Shown: positions 24,120 to 37,180, numbered from the stretch's first letter. The stretch is DNA of 64,000 nt from Eubacteriales bacterium (GCA_045576095.1 JAZNFP010000059.1:9911-73910), one strand, 5' to 3'. Made by a program: numbers and translations. The notes: a model not told the origin generated them from the letters alone.

Positions 24120-24389
24120 TCAAACCGCCTTTTCCCGACGTCTTTGCAAATATTTGATCCGCGTTGCTTCACCGCCACGCAGATGCCGCTCGGATTTGTT
24201 TTGATCGAGCACTTTTTTTACACGGTCGTACAGATCGGGATTGACCGTCATGAGCTTTGCGGTAACGTCCTTATGTACCGTGCTTTTACTGACCGCAAAA
24301 ACGCGCGCCACGGCACGGACGGTACACTCTCTTTCGATCAGATATTCCGCTAGGATCTCACACCGTTCCTTTTGGCTCTGCTGATACAT
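24120..24389 (-). CDS. spoIIID: Sporulation transcriptional regulator SpoIIID
   Basis: ...CTVRAVARVFAVSKSTVHKDVTAKLMTVNPDLYDRVKKVLDQNKSERHLRGGEATRIKY... closely follows the SpoIIID HTH and basic-tail pattern. GGGGAGGG RBS. Confidence 0.93.
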   Translation of the reverse strand: MYQQSQKERCEILAEYLIERECTVRAVARVFAVSKSTVHKDVTAKLMTVNPDLYDRVKKVLDQNKSERHLRGGEATRIKYLQRRREKAV

Positions 24390-25255: not shown

Positions 25256-25298
25256 AAGAGCTCGGCGTGCCATACTTTTCGGCAAGTCGAGCTCTTTT
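25256..25298 (+). terminator. Intrinsic terminator after the methyltransferase gene
   Basis: AAGAGCTCG ... CGAGCTCTT with an inner TGCC/GGCA pairing, followed by TTTGA. Confidence 0.7.
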
Positions 25299-25331: not shown

Positions 25332-25360
25332 TTGACAAGGCTTTTGAGATACGATATAAT
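25332..25360 (+). promoter_or_regulatory. Consensus sigma-A promoter of the LtaS-like / YidC::TagF operon
   Basis: TTGACA (25332-25337), 17 nt, TATAAT (25355-25360), followed by an AT-rich tract. Confidence 0.75.
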
Positions 25361-25403
25361 ATATAATATATATATTATTATTTAATTACAAAAAGGTACG
25401 AAA

Positions 25404-27206
25404 ATGAGTATAAAGAAAACCGACTGCTTTTTGACCGAACGAAAATCGAGAATTGCAGCATCCGCTCTTCTTGCTTTAACGGTTTCAATCATGATTTTTG
25501 TCGTCATACCCTTTGAAATTTACTGTAACAATCTTCCGGAACTGACCTTCTCAGTCTCCGACTTCATTGGGATACAGCTGCTTTTGGCGCTTGCTCTCTC
25601 ACTTCTCATCTTTTCTCTGCTGTTTTTTTCACCGCATGTCGTTTATGAGTACGTCTATCCCGCGTTGGTAGGCGTTCTCCTGATGTTCTTTTTGCAGGGG
25701 AATTATCTTAACGTCGGTCTTTCCTCGCTTGACGGCGATGAGCTCGGCGGCGGTGTCCCCCCCTCAACGTACGTGTGGAATACGGCGGTTTGGTTGCTCG
25801 TTATCGGCGGCTCTGTCCTTGCTTACCGACTCATCAAGCAAAAGAGCACGGTGAAGCTCGCCGCCATCATCGTGTCGGTTGCCGTTTTGGCAACCCAGCT
25901 GATGAATTTTTCCGTCAGCTCACTGTCCACAGAGGGGGCGTACGATTCTGCGATTGACCGTGTTTATGGGAAATATGCGGAGAATCCGCGCTTCCTTACC
26001 AACAAGGGTATCGGAACGGTCGGCTCGCAGAAGAACGTGATTGTGATCTGTGTTGATCGCTTTGATACGCTGCTCTACGTAGAGCCTGCCATGCAGAAGT
26101 ACCCTAAATCCTTTGAAGCGCTCGATGGCTTTACCTTCTACAGAGATGCCGTATCTCTTTACGGATACACCTTCCCCTCCGTTGCCTATATGATGTCCGC
26201 GATCGAATACGACCACTCGGGCGACCGCCTTGCGTACTTTGATCGCGTATATCAAGAGAATCAAACGATCTCGCGTCTTCACGAGCTTGGCTATTCGGTT
26301 CATCTTTTCAGCGAAGCCTACTACGACTATTCCAACGCCAACGAGCTTCCGAATTACGTCGAAAATGCGATTGAAACCGACCGCGAGTCGCTTGAGACCA
26401 AAAATCGCTTCCCCGATCGCTTCGCGCTTGCCATTACAAAGATGTCGTTGTACCGCATTTTTCCCTTCGTTTTGAAATCCACGGTTGGCGGTGTCAGCTC
26501 GGATACCTGCAACGAATATATCCTCTATACCAGCCGGGATCTTTCGGGATATCATGCATATTCCTATGATATGAAGGACGTATACAAGGATATTCTGCGC
26601 CGCCTCAAAGTCGGCTTTGAAGCGAAGGGAGAAAAAAACTTCACTTTTCTTCATATCAGCGGATGCCATAACGCAAAATACGACGAGAACTGGGAAAAAT
26701 CCGGGCATAAGAAAGACGTTCTTGTGTCGGCAAAGAACAGCATGGAGCTGATATCCTCTTATTTAAACGGCATCAAGGCAATCTCCGAGGATCTTTATCG
26801 AGATTCCACCATCATCATTATGGGCGATCACGGTAAGGTTCTTCATCCGTTAAAGGACTTTTCCGCTCCCATGATGACGGCGTTTTTCGTCAAGCCCTCC
26901 GGAGAGGCCGGCACCGAGCTTCGGATCTCTGATGCCCCGGTTGCACAGGAGAACCTTTGGGCAACCATCTTTGAGTCCGAGGGCATTGACTACGATTCTA
27001 CCGCCTTTGCTCCGTCGGTCTTTACGGTTGAACAGAATTTCCTGGAAAGCGGTGACTATCCCGAACGAAAATTTATCTGGACAGCGCGCAAGGTCGGCAT
27101 GGCCTCTTACGATACCGTTGAATATAAGATTACGGGTCCCGCGCGCGACTTTTCAAGCTGGCATGTGGATGCACGGAACCACTACGACAATACGCTATTC
27201 CATTGA
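25404..27206 (+). CDS. LTA-synthase-family (sulfatase-fold) membrane phosphotransferase
   Basis: About 190 aa of N-terminal TM helices, then an extracytoplasmic alkaline-phosphatase-superfamily domain (...NVIVICVDRFDTL..., ...GYTFPSVAYMMSA..., ...IIIMGDHGK...). Confidence 0.8.
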   Translation: MSIKKTDCFLTERKSRIAASALLALTVSIMIFVVIPFEIYCNNLPELTFSVSDFIGIQLLLALALSLLIFSLLFFSPHVVYEYVYPALVGVLLMFFLQGNYLNVGLSSLDGDELGGGVPPSTYVWNTAVWLLVIGGSVLAYRLIKQKSTVKLAAIIVSVAVLATQLMNFSVSSLSTEGAYDSAIDRVYGKYAENPRFLTNKGIGTVGSQKNVIVICVDRFDTLLYVEPAMQKYPKSFEALDGFTFYRDAVSLYGYTFPSVAYMMSAIEYDHSGDRLAYFDRVYQENQTISRLHELGYSVHLFSEAYYDYSNANELPNYVENAIETDRESLETKNRFPDRFALAITKMSLYRIFPFVLKSTVGGVSSDTCNEYILYTSRDLSGYHAYSYDMKDVYKDILRRLKVGFEAKGEKNFTFLHISGCHNAKYDENWEKSGHKKDVLVSAKNSMELISSYLNGIKAISEDLYRDSTIIIMGDHGKVLHPLKDFSAPMMTAFFVKPSGEAGTELRISDAPVAQENLWATIFESEGIDYDSTAFAPSVFTVEQNFLESGDYPERKFIWTARKVGMASYDTVEYKITGPARDFSSWHVDARNHYDNTLFH

Positions 27207-27233
27207 TAGCGATACCGAAAAGAAGGATAGTAT

Positions 27234-29339
27234 ATGGATACGGTCATCAGTTATATCTGCATTCCGCTCGGACTGCTTATGAAGTGGTGTTGGCTTGCGG
27301 TCAAGGACTATGGACTTGCCATACTCCTTTTCACGCTGGCGACGAAGGTTGTTCTGCTTCCCCTTTCGATCTGGATCCAAAAGAACTCGATTCAGATGGT
27401 CAAGCTTCAGCCTGAGATTAATTTTCTCAAGGTCAAGAACCTCGGGAACGGAGATCTGATTGCGGAGGAGCAGGCAAAGCTCTTTAAGCGCGAGCATTAT
27501 CATCCGATGCTCTCTCTCATTCCTCTGCTTCTTCAGATTCTGCTTCTGCTTGGAGTCGTTCAAATCATCTATCATCCTCTGACGTACCTCTTCGGCGTAT
27601 CTGCAGCCGATGTCAAGCTGCTTGCAGAGGCAATCGGTGCGAATACCGCCGAGAGCTCGTTTCAGCTTGCCATCGTCGATGCATTCAAATCGGGCGAGCT
27701 TTCTTCGGCAACGGTAATTTCGGGTATAGATCCTGCCTATCTCGCTTCTCTTGCCGAGCGCGTTTCGGCATTTGATCTTGCATTTTTGGGACTCAATCTT
27801 TCGGTCGTTCCAATGGGGACCTGGGCAAAGTACACCTGGATTCCTCTGCTTGCCGGCCTCTCCTCCTGGATTCTCTGTCAAACGCAGAATATGTCAAACG
27901 TTCTGCAACACGAGCAGAGCCCCTGGAACAAGTACGGCATTATGATCTTCAGCGTCCTTCTCTCGCTCTATCTCGGCGTTTTCGTTCCGATCGGTATTGC
28001 GATTTACTGGATCCTAAGCAATCTCTTCTCGGTGATTCAGATGTATCTTCTGAATGTCCTAATCAACCCCAAAAAGCACGTTGACTACAAGGCGCTTGAG
28101 GAAAGCCGTGTTGCACTCGCAAATTTGAAGGCGTTTGGCGAGGAGGACAAAAAGAGTGAGGAGCACAGAATAAATCGCCAAAGAGAACGCGAGGACATCA
28201 AGCGCTTTAAGAAGATTGTCAATAAGCACGTCGTGTTCTATTCCGAACGTGGCGGCTTCTATAAATACTATAAGGATCTGATTGCCGAGCTGTTAAGGCG
28301 CTCCAACCTCTCGATCCATTACATCACAAACGATCCGGATGACTCGATCTTTGATATCGCAAAAACCGAGCCGAAAATCAAGCCGTACTACGTTTCGCTG
28401 AAGAAAACGGCAACCCTGATGATGCTCATGGAATGCGATATGTTCGTCATGACAACCCCCGATCTCAATAAATTCTACCTCAAGCGCTCCTTTATCAAAT
28501 CCGATATTGAATACGTTTACGTACCGCACGATATGATGAGCGTACACATGAGCTTCCGTGAGGGTGCATTTGACGCCTTTGATACGGTGTTTTGCGTCGG
28601 GCCTCACGTTGAGCGAGAGCTGCGTGAAATAGAGCGCGTATACGGACTGAAGGAAAAGAAGCTCGTGCGGTTCGGATATCCTCTTGCCGACCTTCTTTCG
28701 GTCGAGGGGAAAAAGGCCGCTGACGAAAAGAAGGACTCGTCGGTTAAGGAAATTCTGATCGCGCCTTCCTGGCAGGAGGACAATCTTCTCGACAGCTGTA
28801 TCGACGACATAATTTCGGCGCTTTACGGCACCGGGAATCATATCATCGTCCGTCCCCACCCCGAGTATGCAAAGCGCTTCCCAAACGCCCTTGCCGAGCT
28901 GACACAGCGTTACCGCGAGTATGACGAGAGCAAGCTGAGCTTTGAGTTCAACTTTTCGGTCAATCGCTCGATTTATGCATCCGACGTTTTAATTACCGAC
29001 TGGTCGGGTGTTGCAACCGAGTTCTGCTTTGCTACGGGGCGTCCCGCCATCTTCATTAACACGAAGATGAAGTGTCCCAATCCCAACTACACGAAGATCC
29101 CTCTTACCCCCGTTGAAATTTCCCTTCGAAGCACCGTCGGTGTCGCGCTTGACAAGACCGAGCTATCCACCCTCCCCGAGGTCCTCAAGCAGCTTGGCGA
29201 GAGAGGTGATGAATATCGCACCGTCATCCGCGAAACCGAGTCCTCCCTGATCTTCAACCACGGCACAGCTGCAAAATGCGGCGCCGACTATATTCTCCGC
29301 TCGCTTTCTGCCCGTCAGAGCAAATCTAAAAACAAGTAA
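27234..29339 (+). CDS. Fusion protein: N-terminal YidC/Oxa1-type insertase domain + C-terminal CDP-glycerol glycerophosphotransferase (TagB/TagF) domain
   Basis: aa 1-280: ...DYGLAILLFTLATKVVLLPLSIW...MVKLQPE... and ...PIGIAIYWILSNLFSVIQMYLLN (YidC hallmarks). aa 281-330: K/E/R-rich linker. aa 331-701: ...ILIAPSWQEDN..., ...IIVRPHPEY..., ...VLITDWSGVATEF... (Glyphos_transf hallmarks). No in-frame stop. Confidence 0.8.
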   Translation: MDTVISYICIPLGLLMKWCWLAVKDYGLAILLFTLATKVVLLPLSIWIQKNSIQMVKLQPEINFLKVKNLGNGDLIAEEQAKLFKREHYHPMLSLIPLLLQILLLLGVVQIIYHPLTYLFGVSAADVKLLAEAIGANTAESSFQLAIVDAFKSGELSSATVISGIDPAYLASLAERVSAFDLAFLGLNLSVVPMGTWAKYTWIPLLAGLSSWILCQTQNMSNVLQHEQSPWNKYGIMIFSVLLSLYLGVFVPIGIAIYWILSNLFSVIQMYLLNVLINPKKHVDYKALEESRVALANLKAFGEEDKKSEEHRINRQREREDIKRFKKIVNKHVVFYSERGGFYKYYKDLIAELLRRSNLSIHYITNDPDDSIFDIAKTEPKIKPYYVSLKKTATLMMLMECDMFVMTTPDLNKFYLKRSFIKSDIEYVYVPHDMMSVHMSFREGAFDAFDTVFCVGPHVERELREIERVYGLKEKKLVRFGYPLADLLSVEGKKAADEKKDSSVKEILIAPSWQEDNLLDSCIDDIISALYGTGNHIIVRPHPEYAKRFPNALAELTQRYREYDESKLSFEFNFSVNRSIYASDVLITDWSGVATEFCFATGRPAIFINTKMKCPNPNYTKIPLTPVEISLRSTVGVALDKTELSTLPEVLKQLGERGDEYRTVIRETESSLIFNHGTAAKCGADYILRSLSARQSKSKNK

Positions 29340-29364
29340 AACAAGAAGAAAGAGGTACCTGATT

Positions 29365-29604
29365 ATGTATTTGAGCATGCTTTACATCGATCCTGCAGCA
29401 ACCACCGCCCTCCTCTCCTCGGTTACGGCGATCGCCGTTGCCTGCGGCGCCACCTTTATTATCCTTTGGCGCAAGCTGAAAAAGGGCGCAAAGAACGTTC
29501 TTCATATTGATGAAAACGCCGGAAAAGAGGTTGAGTCCGAGCTCGTTATCATCGACGAGGAAACCGCAGAGCCTGCTGTCAAGGAAACCGTTGAAAGCAA
29601 TTAA
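29365..29604 (+). CDS. Small membrane protein (79 aa), last gene of the operon
   Basis: AAGAGG RBS. One hydrophobic helix (AATTALLSSVTAIAVACGATFIILW), then a KK stop-transfer and an acidic tail. Confidence 0.5.
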   Translation: MYLSMLYIDPAATTALLSSVTAIAVACGATFIILWRKLKKGAKNVLHIDENAGKEVESELVIIDEETAEPAVKETVESN

Positions 29605-29619
29605 ATCGCGCAAAACCAA

Positions 29620-29654
29620 GGGAGCTCCCATGCTGATCAGCACGGGAGCTCCCC
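29620..29654. terminator. Long palindromic hairpin between convergent genes
   Basis: GGGAGCTCCCATGCTGA / TCAGCACGGGAGCTCCC (17 bp, one mismatch). The T-tract is weak (CCTTATACTTTT). Confidence 0.55.
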
Positions 29655-29667
29655 TTATACTTTTAGT

Positions 29668-30984
29668 TTACTTCACAAATTCGGAATAGATACACTTGAG
29701 CGCATTGACGTAATCCCCCTCATCAACGCCGACGATGATGTTGAGCTCGCTCGAGCCCTGGTCGATCATCTTGATGTTGATCGAAGCATCGGCAAGCGCA
29801 CGGAAGATTCTCGCGGCAGTTCCCTTAGCTTTAACCATCGAGCGTCCGACGATTGCAATCAAGGCAAGATTATCCTCAATATCAATGGCATCCGGCTCGG
29901 TCATGCGACAGATTTCGGTGAGAAGAAAATCACGCTTGCCGATGATATCGTTTGAATTAACGACGACCGACATCGTGTCGATTCCGGAGGGAAGATGCTC
30001 AAAGCAGACCTCGCATTTCTCAAGCGCCTCAAGGAGACGGCGACCGAAGCCAATCTCGGAATTCATCATGTCCTTTTCAACCGTTACGACAGAAAAGCCG
30101 CGCTTACCTGCAATTCCAGTGATGACGTGCTCCGAGATTGCATCGGTGGAATGCGCAACGATCATCGTTCCTCTATCCTCGGGACGGTTCGTATTGCGGA
30201 TATTAATCGGGATCCCGGCGTAACGGACGGGGAAAATGGCATCCTCGTGCAGAACGGTTGCGCCCATGTATGAAAGCTCGCGCAGCTCCTTATAGGTAAT
30301 GGTGTCAATAACGCGAGGATTCTCAATCAATCGGGGATCCGCCATTAAAAATCCCGAAACGTCGGTCCAGTTCTCGTATAGATCGGCATTCACCGCACGA
30401 GCAACAATCGAGCCAGTAATATCAGAGCCACCGCGCGAAAAGGTCTTGATCGTACCGTTCGGCATGCTGCCGTAGAACCCGGGAATAACTGCCTGATAAT
30501 GCTCCTTTAAGATCGCCGATAGGATGATGTTGGTTTTCTCGGAATCAAAATTTCCATCCTCACGGAAGAAGATATACTTCTGAGGATCGATAAAATCAAA
30601 GCCGAGATAATTCGCAAGGATGATACCGTTCAAATACTCTCCGCGGCTTGCAATATAGTCACGGCCCGCACAGTGCAAAATAGCGGTGCGGATCGTTTCA
30701 AACTCCTTTTCCAGGGAAAGATCCAGCCCAAGCTCCTCGATGATCGAGCGGTAACGAGCCTCAATTTTAGAGAAGGTCTCATCGATCCCCTGGTCCGCAA
30801 GTGCGAGCTCAAAGCAACGGTACAAAAGATCCGTCACCTTCTCATCCTCGGAAAAACGCTTTCCGGGGGCTGACGGGATCACGTAACGGCGGCAGGACTC
30901 CGCACGGACGATCTCCCCGACTCTGCGAAAATGCTCGGCATCGGCAAGCGAGCTGCCTCCGAATTTCAAAACCTTAAGTTGCAC
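29668..30984 (-). CDS. lysC: Aspartate kinase
   Basis: (GTG)QLKVLKFGGSSLADAEHF... and C-terminal ACT domains (...LALIAIVGRSM...INIKMIDQGSSELNIIVGV...). GAGGT RBS. Confidence 0.93.
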   Translation of the reverse strand: MQLKVLKFGGSSLADAEHFRRVGEIVRAESCRRYVIPSAPGKRFSEDEKVTDLLYRCFELALADQGIDETFSKIEARYRSIIEELGLDLSLEKEFETIRTAILHCAGRDYIASRGEYLNGIILANYLGFDFIDPQKYIFFREDGNFDSEKTNIILSAILKEHYQAVIPGFYGSMPNGTIKTFSRGGSDITGSIVARAVNADLYENWTDVSGFLMADPRLIENPRVIDTITYKELRELSYMGATVLHEDAIFPVRYAGIPINIRNTNRPEDRGTMIVAHSTDAISEHVITGIAGKRGFSVVTVEKDMMNSEIGFGRRLLEALEKCEVCFEHLPSGIDTMSVVVNSNDIIGKRDFLLTEICRMTEPDAIDIEDNLALIAIVGRSMVKAKGTAARIFRALADASINIKMIDQGSSELNIIVGVDEGDYVNALKCIYSEFVK

Positions 30985-31045: not shown

Positions 31046-31137
31046 TGGCGGAGAGAGTGAGATTCGAACTCACGGAACGGTATTAGCGTTCACACGATTT
31101 CCAGTCGTGCGCCTTAGACCAGCTCAGCCATCTCTCC
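31046..31137 (-). tRNA. tRNA-Ser (anticodon GGA), CCA encoded
   Basis: Reverse complement GGAGAGATGGCTGAGCTGGTCTAAGGCGCACGACTGGAAATCGTGTGAACGCTAATACCGTTCCGTGAGTTCGAATCTCACTCTCTCCGCCA. It has a 7-bp acceptor stem, anticodon stem CACGA/TCGTG with loop CTGGAAA, a long variable arm and T-loop GTTCGAATC. Confidence 0.93.
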
Positions 31138-31262: not shown

Positions 31263-32168
31263 TTACTTTCCGTTTCCGCAACCGCATCTTCCGGCAAGGT
31301 TGCTCAAGCCGGTTGCATTTGCACTTGAGGTCGAAAGAAGGGCTCTCGCGTTGCCGTTGCCGTTGCCGTTCTGGGCACAGTTCGTTCCGGCAAACTCTCC
31401 CGTCGGAAACGCCATCGTTCGGAAAAGGCTGCAGGGATCGTCCTGCTCGGCCGTAACGCTCTCCTTATCCGGAACGCTGTAGTCGCTTGCACTGATCAAA
31501 AGCTGCGCGGGGCGCTTTAAGCGAATGACCGAGAAGATACCGAGGGAAACGTACAGACGGTTACCGCAGTCGGGATCAACGAGCGGCCCGATCAAGGAAG
31601 AGCAAACCGCCTCGGGAATCTCGTCACAGCGACAGAAGCAACAGCCGCACTGAAGATTTCTCTCGCAGATCTTCACCGAGAGCGCGATCGGATCAACAAC
31701 CTCGACAACGCCTACGGGGAGATTGGAGGCAGCCTCGGCGGGACTGAAGTCGCACAGCCCCGTATCGCTGCTGCTCGTAAAGATTTTGACACTTCCCTCG
31801 CCGCCGTACAGAACGGCACGCTTTTCAAGGACTGCGATTCCCGCAAAATCCTGACTTCTTCCGGTTGCAACGCACCCCTCAAAGGAAAGCTTGACGTAGT
31901 ATCTCGCCGTAAGCTGATAGAAGCCGCAGTTGAAGGGAATGGGATCAACGCTGATCTGTGTCCAAACAACCTCGGCGCTGCGAACTCTTACCGTGCAGGT
32001 ATTGTCAATAACCTCCTGACCAAGCGCTGTCAGATAGATTCTGACGTCCTCGTAGCAATCGCGATCGCGAGAGGAATCAAGGATACGGTAAGTATCAATG
32101 CAGACCGTCTCCCGTCCGCCAAGCGCACCGTTCCCCTGGGCACATCTGTTTTCTGCCATACAGAACAT
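31263..32168 (-). CDS. Cysteine-rich hypothetical protein (301 aa, 20 Cys)
   Basis: ORF with RBS TAGGAG. Features: CIDTYRILDSSRDRDC, CGCCFCRC cluster, NGNGNGN repeat, C-terminal GRCGCGNGK. No signal peptide or TM helix. I recognise no family. Confidence 0.65.
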   Translation of the reverse strand: MFCMAENRCAQGNGALGGRETVCIDTYRILDSSRDRDCYEDVRIYLTALGQEVIDNTCTVRVRSAEVVWTQISVDPIPFNCGFYQLTARYYVKLSFEGCVATGRSQDFAGIAVLEKRAVLYGGEGSVKIFTSSSDTGLCDFSPAEAASNLPVGVVEVVDPIALSVKICERNLQCGCCFCRCDEIPEAVCSSLIGPLVDPDCGNRLYVSLGIFSVIRLKRPAQLLISASDYSVPDKESVTAEQDDPCSLFRTMAFPTGEFAGTNCAQNGNGNGNARALLSTSSANATGLSNLAGRCGCGNGK

Positions 32169-35433: not shown

Positions 35434-36006
35434 TTACGGGATAAATTCCTCTGCAACAGCTCCGTAAACGGCAATCGTTTCGTATTTGCCATTTACAAGC
35501 AACGCATCCCGAAGGCTCCCCTCATACCGCATTCTGCATTTCTCCATGACGCGACGACTGGCAGCATGGCTCTCAAAGCATCGAGCCTCGACACGGTGAA
35601 GGTGCAGGTCTATGAACGCAAAGGACAACAGAAGCTCAAGCACCTCGGTTGCGTATCCCTTCCCCCAAAAATCGGGATGGAGAACGTATCCGACCTCAGC
35701 CGATCGGTTCAGCTCGGAAATCAAAGGGAATCCGCAGGTGCCGATCATTTTTCCGCTTGCTCTGTCAACGATCGCCCAATCGTAAAATTCGCCGTTCCGA
35801 TAGAGCTTTTCGGCGTATGAAAGATATTGCCTCGTGTATTCCGGATTCGGATGCGGCAGCCAGAGAAGATACTGCGTAACCGACTCAAGGCGTGCATAAT
35901 CGTACATATCCGCCGTGTCGCCTACACAAAGCCGCCGGAGCAACAACCGATCGCCATTCAGCTCGGGAATTTTTCTGAAAATTTTTCTTATCGAATTGCT
36001 CTTCAA
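35434..36006 (-). CDS. GNAT-family N-acetyltransferase (RimJ/RimL-like)
   Basis: ...VGYVLHPDFWGKGYATEVLELLLSFAF... is the acetyl-CoA binding motif A pattern. Confidence 0.85.
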   Translation of the reverse strand: MKSNSIRKIFRKIPELNGDRLLLRRLCVGDTADMYDYARLESVTQYLLWLPHPNPEYTRQYLSYAEKLYRNGEFYDWAIVDRASGKMIGTCGFPLISELNRSAEVGYVLHPDFWGKGYATEVLELLLSFAFIDLHLHRVEARCFESHAASRRVMEKCRMRYEGSLRDALLVNGKYETIAVYGAVAEEFIP

Positions 36007-36116
36007 TGCGTACAGCCCCGTTTCTCATCTATCTTTAACAGTATATCACACTTTGATGCGAGGCGCAATTGTTTGTAAATATTTTGCAAATAGGTGCAGG
36101 CTCTTCACGAAACGTC

Positions 36117-36145
36117 TTGCATTTTTTGTTGAAATATGCTACACT
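36117..36145 (+). promoter_or_regulatory. Sigma-A-type promoter of the DUF624-like gene
   Basis: TTGCAT (36117-36122), 17 nt, TGcTACACT (-10 at 36140-36145). Confidence 0.5.
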
Positions 36146-36178
36146 TATTTTTGTAGCATACGAAAGGAGCTCTCTGCC

Positions 36179-37180
36179 TTGCAAGACCGCCAGAACCCCA
36201 AAAAAGGATTTCGTCTGTTCGACTCTCAACGTGAGGGAAAGGGCGTCGAAAAATCCGAAATCGACAAAAGCCCAACCTTAAAGCGCTTTTTTCGCTTGTA
36301 TAAGGATAACCTTAACAAGCTTCTGTCCTTGAATATCATGATGGTGCTCGGGCTCTTCCCCGTCATTTTCCTGGTTCTCGGGCTCTCTAACGTTATGACA
36401 ATTGATTTTCTTACCCCCACCTCGGACGTTTATTCGATGCTCCGTGCCATCCTTTTGACCAAGGATTCGCTCTCCCCCTCCGAGCTCATCTCTCTCGGAA
36501 TCGACGGCCTGCAGATCGGAGAAAGCGCGCGCACCCTCTGGAACTATATTTTCCTCGGTCTTTCTCTTCTGACCTTCTTCACCTTCGGCTTTGTCAACGT
36601 CGGGGCGGCTTACGTAACGAGAAACATCTGCATGGGTGATCCCGTGTTCGTCTATTCCGATTTCATCTATGCGATTCGCCGAAACTGGAAGCAGGCTCTC
36701 CCGTTTGGAATGCTGGATCTCTTTCTTTCGGTTCTGATTTTCTTCAATCTTTTTACGATGCTTCAGTCCGGTGGCGGACTTTTTAACGGGATCCTTTTCT
36801 GGGCTAATCTGATTTTCGGCTTGATCTATCTGTTCATGAGAAATTATTTCTACGTTCAGATGGTAACCTTTGATCTCAAGGGATTTAAAATTATCAAAAA
36901 CTCGCTCATCTTTGCGCTCATCGGATGGAAGCGAAACTTTCTTGCCTTCTTCGGATTACTTCTGCTTCTCTTCTTTAACCTGATCTTTGTCTTCGGCTTT
37001 GGCGGCGTTCTGCTTCCCATCGGTATCGCCTTTCCTCTCATCGCCCTGCTCTCGCATTCCACCTTCATGGGAACCTACGCCTCGTATTACAAGATCAAAG
37101 AGATAATGATTGATCCCTATTACGATGAGGACGGAAACGACCTGACGGAGAGCCTTGAGAGCATCAATGCCGAAGCATGA
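36179..37180 (+). CDS. YesL/DUF624-like polytopic membrane protein
   Basis: TTG start 9 nt after AAAGGAG. ...FFRLYKDNLNKLLSLNIMMVLGLFPVIFLV... and 6-7 TM segments. The track start at 35915 overlaps the divergent GNAT gene. Confidence 0.6.
   Translation: MQDRQNPKKGFRLFDSQREGKGVEKSEIDKSPTLKRFFRLYKDNLNKLLSLNIMMVLGLFPVIFLVLGLSNVMTIDFLTPTSDVYSMLRAILLTKDSLSPSELISLGIDGLQIGESARTLWNYIFLGLSLLTFFTFGFVNVGAAYVTRNICMGDPVFVYSDFIYAIRRNWKQALPFGMLDLFLSVLIFFNLFTMLQSGGGLFNGILFWANLIFGLIYLFMRNYFYVQMVTFDLKGFKIIKNSLIFALIGWKRNFLAFFGLLLLLFFNLIFVFGFGGVLLPIGIAFPLIALLSHSTFMGTYASYYKIKEIMIDPYYDEDGNDLTESLESINAEA

Follow-up and report, generated by a model that had tools for sequence, protein, structure and literature searches.

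Phosphocholine, phosphoethanolamine and 2-aminoethylphosphonate (AEP) on bacterial surfaces affect how the cells are recognised by the immune system, how they resist antimicrobial peptides and how they colonise a host, and to our knowledge only LicD-type cytoplasmic transferases are well described for such decorations. In the Lic pathway of Streptococcus pneumoniae and Haemophilus influenzae (LicB, LicA, LicC and LicD, with the flippase TacF in pneumococci) the head group is taken up, activated by LicC and then transferred to an envelope glycan, and the Pnt clusters described in the literature rely on LicD-like transferases or on glycosyltransferases. Outside the membrane, LtaS, EptA/MCR-1 and OpgB transfer head groups from lipid donors. 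Here we describe a three-gene operon (g1, g2 and g3) at positions 25332-29654 of a 64,000-nt stretch of DNA (hereafter the window) from a Eubacteriales bacterium (GCA_045576095.1, JAZNFP010000059.1:9911-73910), in which a gene for a fusion of a YidC-like with a TagF-like domain stands between the genes for a membrane enzyme of the alkaline-phosphatase (AP) fold and for a small membrane protein. Based on comparative sequence analysis and structure prediction, we consider it probable, if not by much, that this operon encodes the membrane part of an envelope-decoration pathway which works without LicD and attaches a small phospho- or phosphono-head group.

The Lic pathway resembles what we find in that uptake and LicC-type activation precede transfer, and relatives of the module carry LicA-type kinases and BCCT transporters alongside. 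The genome studied here differs, however, in having no match to LicD (PF04991), and neither choline kinase (LicA) nor LicB nor a BCCT transporter was found in it; the candidate transferase is TagF-like, and g1, the YidC-like domain and the YIDP-motif protein g3 appear as its obligatory partners. With the Pnt pathway the genome shares a LicC homologue whose two specificity positions are Glu, like those of Tde-PntC, and an adjoining importer best matched by the putative AEP transporter models PhnS2/T2/U2, but no phosphoenolpyruvate (PEP) mutase was found in the genome, so any phosphonate would need to be imported, and the described Pnt clusters do not use the trio of TagF-, YidC- and AP-like proteins. 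TagF/TarF/TarL and Clostridioides difficile FtaD have in common with the C-terminal half of g2 the GT-B fold and a match to PF04464 above its cut-off, and FtaD, which uses CDP-N-methylthreonine (bioRxiv 10.64898/2026.02.12.704994), indicates that this family can take a CDP-activated amino-acid alcohol as donor. In contrast to TagF/TarF/TarL, g2 (~18% identity) is covalently fused to a YidC core, in a genome without CDP-glycerol or CDP-ribitol supply. The five transmembrane (TM) helices, AP-fold domain, Thr nucleophile and Asp/His metal ligands of LtaS, EptA/MCR-1, OpgB and PbgA/YejM recur in g1, but its identity to any of them is 12-14%, it has no family-level match to a hidden Markov model and, unlike enzymes of the LtaS/EptA type, it always accompanies YidC-like and TagF-like partners, to which it is sometimes fused. 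The N-terminal half of g2, finally, passes the YidC/Oxa1/Alb3 models PF02096 and TIGR03592 and retains the core helices, cytoplasmic hairpin and basic groove residue seen in Bacillus halodurans YidC2 (3WO6) and Escherichia coli YidC (3WVF); it differs from these in being an enzyme-fused second copy without lipoprotein signal and basic tail, and its groove position is Asn in the type-B fusions described below. The literature that we searched contains no description of a YidC-TagF or YidC-sulfatase fusion, nor of a TagF-type phosphocholine or AEP transferase.

Organisation and conservation of the operon

The operon consists of three + strand open reading frames (ORFs) with intergenic gaps of 27 and 25 nt and a purine-rich stretch resembling a ribosome-binding site before each start, as had been described in an annotation made earlier from this DNA alone (the original prediction). 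Its parts are the following:

25332-25360, + strand: promoter TTGACA-17-TATAAT, sigma-70-type, matching the consensus at 12 of 12 positions
25404-27206, + strand: g1, a 600-aa membrane enzyme of LtaS/EptA/PbgA architecture forming its own clade
27234-29339, + strand: g2 as a whole, a 701-aa YidC::TagF-like fusion
27234-28073, + strand: N-terminal part of g2 (aa 1-280), a YidC/Oxa1-like five-helix membrane core
28074-29339, + strand: C-terminal part of g2 (aa 281-701), with linker helices on the cytoplasmic side and then a GT-B phosphotransferase domain resembling TagF (aa ~331-701)
29365-29604, + strand: g3, a 79-aa single-pass membrane protein

A comparison across relatives was based on 80 fetched module loci, adjacency being counted only where the contig leaves room, and the conservation of synteny on which the original prediction had staked its case was found: in 68 of 73 loci g1 immediately precedes g2 in the same orientation, being displaced nearby in the remainder, and g3 follows g2 directly in 77 of 78. 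The trio is retained at 36-49% g2 identity despite altered gene order. Among distant carriers the flanking genes vary between loci; a relative with 83% identity shares the flanks of the window. Identity among relatives is 57-77% for g2 and 30-60% for g1, and g3 is well conserved (163 homologues, with 60-87% identity among the matches listed). The fast divergence of g1 would resemble that often seen in exposed domains.

The fusion family counts more than 2,400 matches in a 90%-identity database, where the annotation is at most "YidC", and forms at least 596 clusters when its proteins are grouped at 50% identity (E <= 1e-30); at least 412 species genomes carry the fusion. All carriers are Clostridia of gut or rumen that have not been cultured, with labels such as Christensenellaceae, Ca. 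Scatosoma and Ca. Borkfalkiaceae. The host assembly (1.47 Mb) is 97% complete. When 401 genomes were drawn evenly from the order of the host, the full fusion was present in 18 (~4.5%), and it is missing from two genomes of the same genus; this patchiness within the order marks the module as an accessory trait.

Permuted domain fusions

Ten genomes of the 401-genome sample carry a stand-alone TagF-like paralogue of ~415 aa, and all ten have an adjoining gene for a 916-984-aa protein in which YidC is fused to a five-TM AP-type enzyme (YidC::5TM-AP; in genome G191 it is cut at the contig end). Elsewhere in the sample this fusion occurs on one truncated contig only. That YidC would be joined to the outside enzyme in genomes with a stand-alone TagF had been predicted beforehand, and the outcome agreed. 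In eight of nine loci of this arrangement, termed type B, the stand-alone TagF-like protein opens with a g3-like YIDPGTGSMLF and a TM helix, resulting in a YIDP-TM::TagF-like protein adjoining a YidC::AP-like one. Single chains with all three enzyme modules were found as well, in the orders AP::YidC::TagF (P0323, P0336) and YidC::TagF::AP (P0321, P0326), both of which are topologically coherent. The YidC fold is found joined to either enzyme, the one inside or the one outside. Since the four modules always co-occur and each can be joined to a neighbour, they would form one membrane-spanning complex, and the permuted fusions are the strongest evidence here that argues for such a machine. Together with the synteny in 80 loci they also bear out the earlier view of a self-contained unit that pairs an inside TagF-type and an outside AP-superfamily enzyme with a YidC-like module, in a layout that differs from the classic loci for lipoteichoic and wall teichoic acid.

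Two peculiar arrangements were noted among the relatives. At L098:4176-9710, two tandem YidC::AP-fold paralogues (923 and 910 aa, ~60% identical) follow one TagF-like gene. Genome G236 (loci L100 and L113) has both types of module, type A on contig C17 and type B on C23; it has no LicC-like match at E <= 1e-10, and its type-A copy is flanked by genes for a Gfo/Idh/MocA oxidoreductase and an AraC-type regulator.

The predicted enzymes on either side of the membrane

The AlphaFold2 model of g1 has a mean predicted local distance difference test score (pLDDT) of 90.3 and consists of five long N-terminal helices and an AP-fold domain, in line with five TM helices at aa ~5-175 and an alkaline-phosphatase-superfamily domain at aa ~195-600. 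Judging from the basic N-terminus and the five TM helices, the catalytic domain is probably extracytoplasmic. Pfam gives a weak Sulfatase match (33.6 bits), no match was obtained to NCBIfam models or, with phmmer, to PDB sequences, and in Foldseek searches sulfatases, PbgA/YejM, LtaS and MCR-1 are equally distant (12-14% identity). The g1 profile matches LtaS at E = 8e-7 over the C-terminal third only and no better than sulfatases, and its weak matches include phosphonate monoester hydrolase and choline sulfatase. Invariant in the family are N211, D218, T256, H417, H422, D475 and H476, of which T256 aligns to the nucleophile Cys of the phosphonate monoester hydrolase 4upk, and the GDH motif aligns to the GDH of LtaS.

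No formylglycine motif (C/S-x-P-x-R) is present in g1: the sequence around the nucleophile, G-Y-T-F-P-S-V, has an invariant Thr and lacks the Arg, which rules out a formylglycine-type sulfatase. A canonical LtaS was rejected as well, given the missing NCBIfam and PDB matches and the presence of stronger LtaS-like paralogues; the search for a canonical ltaS that had been recommended with the original prediction retrieved two such genes elsewhere in the genome (114-125 bits). The predicted features of g1 fit the LtaS fold (five TM helices, AP-fold domain, Thr nucleophile, Asp/His metal site), and by sequence it is a putative phosphotransferase of the Thr-nucleophile type, with Thr-256 as the predicted nucleophile, in a clade separate from LtaS. 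Of the "LtaS-like enzyme" that had been announced, the LtaS/EptA architecture, the Thr nucleophile and the GDH motif therefore stand, but the protein is not a canonical LtaS. The caveat attached to that claim, namely that g1 might belong to an unrelated clade of sulfatases or phosphoethanolamine transferases, applies in part: g1 is not a sulfatase, yet its clade is its own and lies outside LtaS.

The C-terminal half of g2 matches Glyphos_transf (PF04464) over aa 330-608 with 45.5 bits (cut-off 22.1). The AlphaFold2 model of g2 has a pLDDT of 80.6, and Foldseek ranks TagF 3L7K first for the TagF-like domain (E = 5e-9, 18% identity); two capsule polymerases, 8QOY and 8A0C, come next, before generic GT-B enzymes. 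Neither alone nor as a profile did the domain retrieve a solved TagF by sequence, and no residue-level alignment was obtained; the assignment as TagF-like holds at the level of fold and Pfam only. Family invariants include H432-D433, APSW (510-513), RPHPE (H542) and TDWSG (588-592), and H432 and H542, judged by their motifs, may correspond to the catalytic His pair H444/H584 of TagF. The family invariants of g1 and of the TagF-like half of g2 indicate that the catalytic cores of both enzymes are intact. The TagF-like domain would be cytoplasmic, as deduced from the topology of YidC.

The pairing of these two enzymes had been interpreted in the original prediction as a compact glycerol-phosphate pathway, in which the TagF domain polymerises or primes glycerol phosphate from CDP-glycerol inside and g1 adds glycerol phosphate from phosphatidylglycerol outside. 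The PF04464 score above cut-off and the rank of TagF as top structural match of g2 are compatible with such a pathway, as are the LtaS architecture, Thr nucleophile and LtaS-aligned GDH of g1, and phosphatidylglycerol is available, PgsA being encoded in the genome. However, the search for tagD that had been proposed along with this pathway yielded no match to TIGR01518 at E <= 0.01 in the 97%-complete genome, and there is no TagB or other second PF04464 protein, the g2 fusion containing the only PF04464 domain (the search did not extend to TagO, TagA and TagGH). A single LCP ligase is encoded. The sole IspD homologue was considered as TarI, i.e. as a source of CDP-ribitol, and rejected, since the directly following IspF-like ORF assigns it to the methylerythritol phosphate pathway. 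The CDP-glycerol or CDP-ribitol donor of the TagF family, supplied by TagD or TarI/J, is thus not accounted for in this genome. Against the glycerol-phosphate pathway stand also the position of g1 outside the LtaS family models, next to two canonical LtaS-like genes elsewhere, and the recurrent neighbours of the module, which are LicC-type enzymes, choline kinase, aminotransferases and AEP-type importers and point to activation of the LicC/PntC type; a TagD-like domain occurs in just 6 of the 80 loci, where it is fused to an oxidoreductase and lies beside an aminotransferase gene. We consider this pathway very improbable, and the earlier interpretation is not supported on this point.

Linkage to LicC/PntC-type head-group activation

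A gene encoding a LicC-like cytidylyltransferase fused to a helix-turn-helix (HTH) domain directly follows g3 in 20 of the 80 loci, genes for a PhnS2/T2/U2-like ABC importer lie upstream in 14-16, and an AEP-aminotransferase-like gene is present together with the TagD-like cytidylyltransferase::oxidoreductase in the six loci mentioned above. At L096 the order g1-g2-g3 continues with a fusion of HTH, LicC and choline kinase and then a BCCT transporter; LicC-like and choline-kinase genes lie beside the module at L098 and L099, and nucleotidyltransferases are found near it at L097, L103 and L104, accompanied by aminotransferases at L097 and L104. Over the 401-genome sample, with LicC-like genes scored as present at E <= 1e-10, the module and a LicC-like gene occur together in 20 genomes, the module alone in 7, the LicC-like gene alone in 27 and neither in 347, which corresponds to an odds ratio of 37 (p = 2e-15) if kinship between the genomes is ignored.

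The corresponding genes of the host genome are located outside the window, as is a further candidate consumer of activated head groups:

C46:23895-28219 (locus L093 4842-9220), - strand: LicC/importer cluster
C12:17742-18248, - strand: CDP-alcohol phosphatidyltransferase-family protein of 168 aa, no equivalog, among genes for membrane proteins and XRE-type regulators

The C46 cluster encodes, in this order, a LicC/PntC-like cytidylyltransferase with a MarR-type HTH domain, a PhnS2-like binding protein, a PhnT2-like ATPase and a PhnU2-like fused permease; it begins ~190 nt from the contig end and contains no kinase. Its LicC-like enzyme shares 74% identity with those encoded beside the module, and its best PDB match is LicC 1JYK (E = 1e-25). 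Given that neither a kinase nor a PEP mutase was found, the substrate is probably imported already carrying phosphorus. Rice et al. (2019; PMC6697681) associate two positions with specificity in this enzyme family, at both of which Spn-LicC, preferring phosphocholine, has Asp and Tde-PntC, preferring AEP, has Glu. In the C46 enzyme both positions are Glu, and in the LicC-like enzymes of relatives with a linked kinase the first is Ser or Pro. Judged from these residues and gene contents, the head group probably differs between lineages, and for the genome studied here an imported primary-amine phosph(on)ate, AEP or phosphoethanolamine, would fit better than phosphocholine.

Activated head groups could also be destined for the bulk membrane. 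LicC-type activation feeds phosphatidylcholine synthesis in some spirochaetes, YidC-family proteins scramble glycerophospholipids, and the weak profile matches of g1 to phosphonate monoester hydrolase and choline sulfatase would suit an enzyme that remodels or hydrolyses head groups, so that the module might make or remodel a zwitterionic membrane lipid of the phosphono- or phosphocholine type. We regard this as improbable: the patchy, accessory distribution, including the absence from two genomes of the same genus, suits a variable surface trait better, and an obligatorily coupled, even fused, ecto-transferase with a Thr nucleophile has no obvious role in bulk lipid formation.

The YidC-like domain, g3 and a proposed mechanism

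The membrane core of g2 (aa 26-274) is recognised as 60KD_IMP/YidC by PF02096 (99 bits) and TIGR03592 (88.3 bits, cut-off 84.3), so that both domains of the YidC::TagF fusion, which had been called from the sequence alone, pass profile cut-offs. In the alignment to the YidC structures 3WO6/3WVF, K38 stands opposite the groove Arg (R72/R366); it is invariant in the family and keeps the groove basic. Core helices and cytoplasmic hairpin are preserved, and a lipoprotein signal/lipobox and a basic C-terminal tail are missing. The housekeeping YidC, encoded on contig C61, is 27% identical to g2 over the whole core and has the same insertion in the TM2-TM3 loop, and by sequence the g2 domain is evidently a paralogue of it.

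No family match in Pfam or NCBIfam was obtained for g3. Its sequence runs from an invariant N-terminal LYIDPAAT through one predicted TM helix, a basic stop-transfer WRKLKKG and a cytoplasmic HIDENA.KEVE..LV to an acidic tail, which agrees with the 79-aa membrane protein that had been proposed and places it in a conserved family. A salt bridge between Asp-9 of g3 and Lys-38 of g2 was considered as a binding site for a zwitterion; the idea was weakened by the type-B YidC::AP fusions, which have Asn at the groove Lys/Arg position, while YIDP is kept.

A deviating relative, P0333 (861 aa), has a Peptidase_S26 (signal peptidase I) domain at the N-terminus of YidC::TagF, and a separate S26 gene is located near the module at L104:9226-9747; this may hint that one component is processed.

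In the pathway that we propose, a small amino-phosph(on)ate would be supplied and activated with CTP by the LicC/PntC-type enzyme of C46, as the gene linkage suggests. By homology, the TagF-like domain would then take the head group off its CMP/CDP donor and place it on a hydroxyl of an acceptor in the membrane, possibly a lipid or a lipid-linked glycan, with release of CMP. The YidC domain of g2 and g3 might form a membrane hub and, speculatively, a conduit to the outer leaflet, where Thr-256 of g1 would, again by homology, pick up the head group and pass it to the final acceptor, which might be a protein, a wall glycan or a teichoic acid. Among these steps transport by the YidC fold is speculative and has the least support; the head group and the acceptor are likewise inferred.

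Lipid scrambling in vitro has been described for YidC and further insertases of the Oxa1 family (bioRxiv 10.1101/2023.09.01.555937), and it is tempting to speculate that the YidC/Oxa1 fold and the YIDP helix constitute a dedicated transbilayer conduit for a lipid-linked zwitterionic head group, which would couple the TagF-like to the LtaS/EptA-like enzyme in one complex. We put this forward tentatively, as a possibility with more against it than for it. With the same head-group chemistry, the YidC domain could also be merely an anchor or scaffold, or a private insertase or chaperone for g1 or g3, the modified intermediate being moved by an unrelated flippase or crossing spontaneously. TagF enzymes normally require a membrane anchor, and g3 presumably resembles a classic small YidC substrate, with its short Asp-bearing N-tail, single TM helix and basic residues; the domain passes the YidC cut-offs with its core helices and cytoplasmic hairpin kept, and the charge of the groove is not kept in type B. 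On the other hand, a housekeeping YidC is already present in the genome, the core of ~280 aa is about as conserved as the catalytic domain, for which a plain anchor would have no need, the YidC fold is retained in every fusion permutation, on the inside or the outside enzyme, and no dedicated flippase gene recurs in the neighbourhoods of the module. An anchoring or insertase role appears rather unlikely to us on these grounds.

Several observations weigh against a LicD-independent decoration pathway with a YidC-type conduit. The LicC-like/importer cluster and the operon of the host lie on different contigs, and the proteins of the ABC importer score below the curated cut-offs of the PhnS2/T2/U2 models. 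Seven of the 27 module-positive genomes have no LicC-like match at E <= 1e-10, two of these having another nucleotidyltransferase adjoining. The Glu/Asp specificity rule is drawn from two enzymes only, and the activated head group could alternatively be consumed by the CDP-alcohol phosphatidyltransferase on C12, the neighbourhood of which is uninformative. The TagF-like domain is too diverged for a sequence alignment to solved TagF, its His residues being placed by family invariance and motif resemblance, and with a predicted template modelling score of 0.58 the g2 model leaves the relative arrangement of the domains undefined. The Asn in the groove of type-B fusions means that a shared, charge-based conduit mechanism is not evident. 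All carriers, moreover, are uncultured metagenome-assembled genomes.

If the decoration pathway proposed here is correct, it would be a second route, unrelated to LicD, with swappable cassettes for head-group supply, spread over hundreds of as yet uncultured Clostridia species from gut and rumen, and it would propose a role for three large families now labelled "YidC", "hypothetical" and "sulfatase-like". Should the conduit function hold as well, g2 would be the first insertase-fold protein natively moving a lipid or small molecule in envelope decoration, and the host would display scavenged 2-aminoethylphosphonate on a Gram-positive surface. The module is also a natural case in which to ask whether evolution has put the in vitro lipid scrambling of YidC/Oxa1 proteins to use for dedicated transport.

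Promoter, flanking hairpins, base composition and neighbouring genes

The consensus promoter claimed for the operon was found with all 12 hexamer positions matching, and both hexamers and the 17-nt spacing are invariant across four orthologous upstream regions in which the other bases diverge. Weaker promoter-like sites across the region are not more frequent than in shuffled sequences. The operon is bordered by:

25257-25295, + strand: upstream hairpin after a SpoU-like methylase gene (-27.2 kcal/mol, z = -4.9)
29620-29654, no strand assigned: downstream hairpin between g3 and the convergent aspartokinase gene (-27.7 kcal/mol, z = -5.6)
29668-30984, - strand: aspartokinase gene, convergent with g3

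No shuffled sequence folds as well as the upstream hairpin, the arms of which (GAGCTCGGC...GCCGAGCTC) recur in L010, the relative with 83% identity; it probably ends the transcript of the SpoU-like gene and would shield the operon from upstream transcription. The downstream hairpin had been pointed out in the original prediction and is as strong as supposed. It probably acts as a bidirectional terminator, a function that we infer: the terminator scan made no call on it, a clean T-run is missing, and in L010 an unrelated hairpin occupies the same position downstream of g3. Strong hairpins on either side indicate that the operon is insulated at both ends and self-contained.

The impression that the region is AT-rich was correct in direction, with a GC content of 0.496 in the operon (4th percentile), 0.517 in the window and 0.557 in the genome, but the effect is marginal, and GC at third codon positions is the same as in flanking genes (0.60-0.63 in the three operon genes, 0.53-0.64 in their neighbours), so that the operon bears no clear foreign signature. 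A signature of horizontal transfer was accordingly rejected despite the low GC; no plasmid copies were found, and the patchy distribution is the sole hint of mobility.

Upstream of the operon, and separated from it by the SpoU-type methylase gene, lies an 89-aa ORF (24120-24389, - strand) whose counterpart in the syntenic L010 has a SpoIIID Pfam match, which suggests that the host is probably a spore-former. On the other side, an 89-nt tRNA (31049-31137, - strand) is the only Rfam match within the window, and a 301-aa Cys-rich ORF with a GNGNGN stretch (31263-32168, - strand) has a 296-aa gene without Pfam match at a similar position in L010. The kilobase of lowest GC in the window (36001-37000; GC 0.452, AT skew -0.22) overlaps a 421-aa ORF on the + strand (35915-37180), the neighbouring large ORFs being mostly on the - strand.

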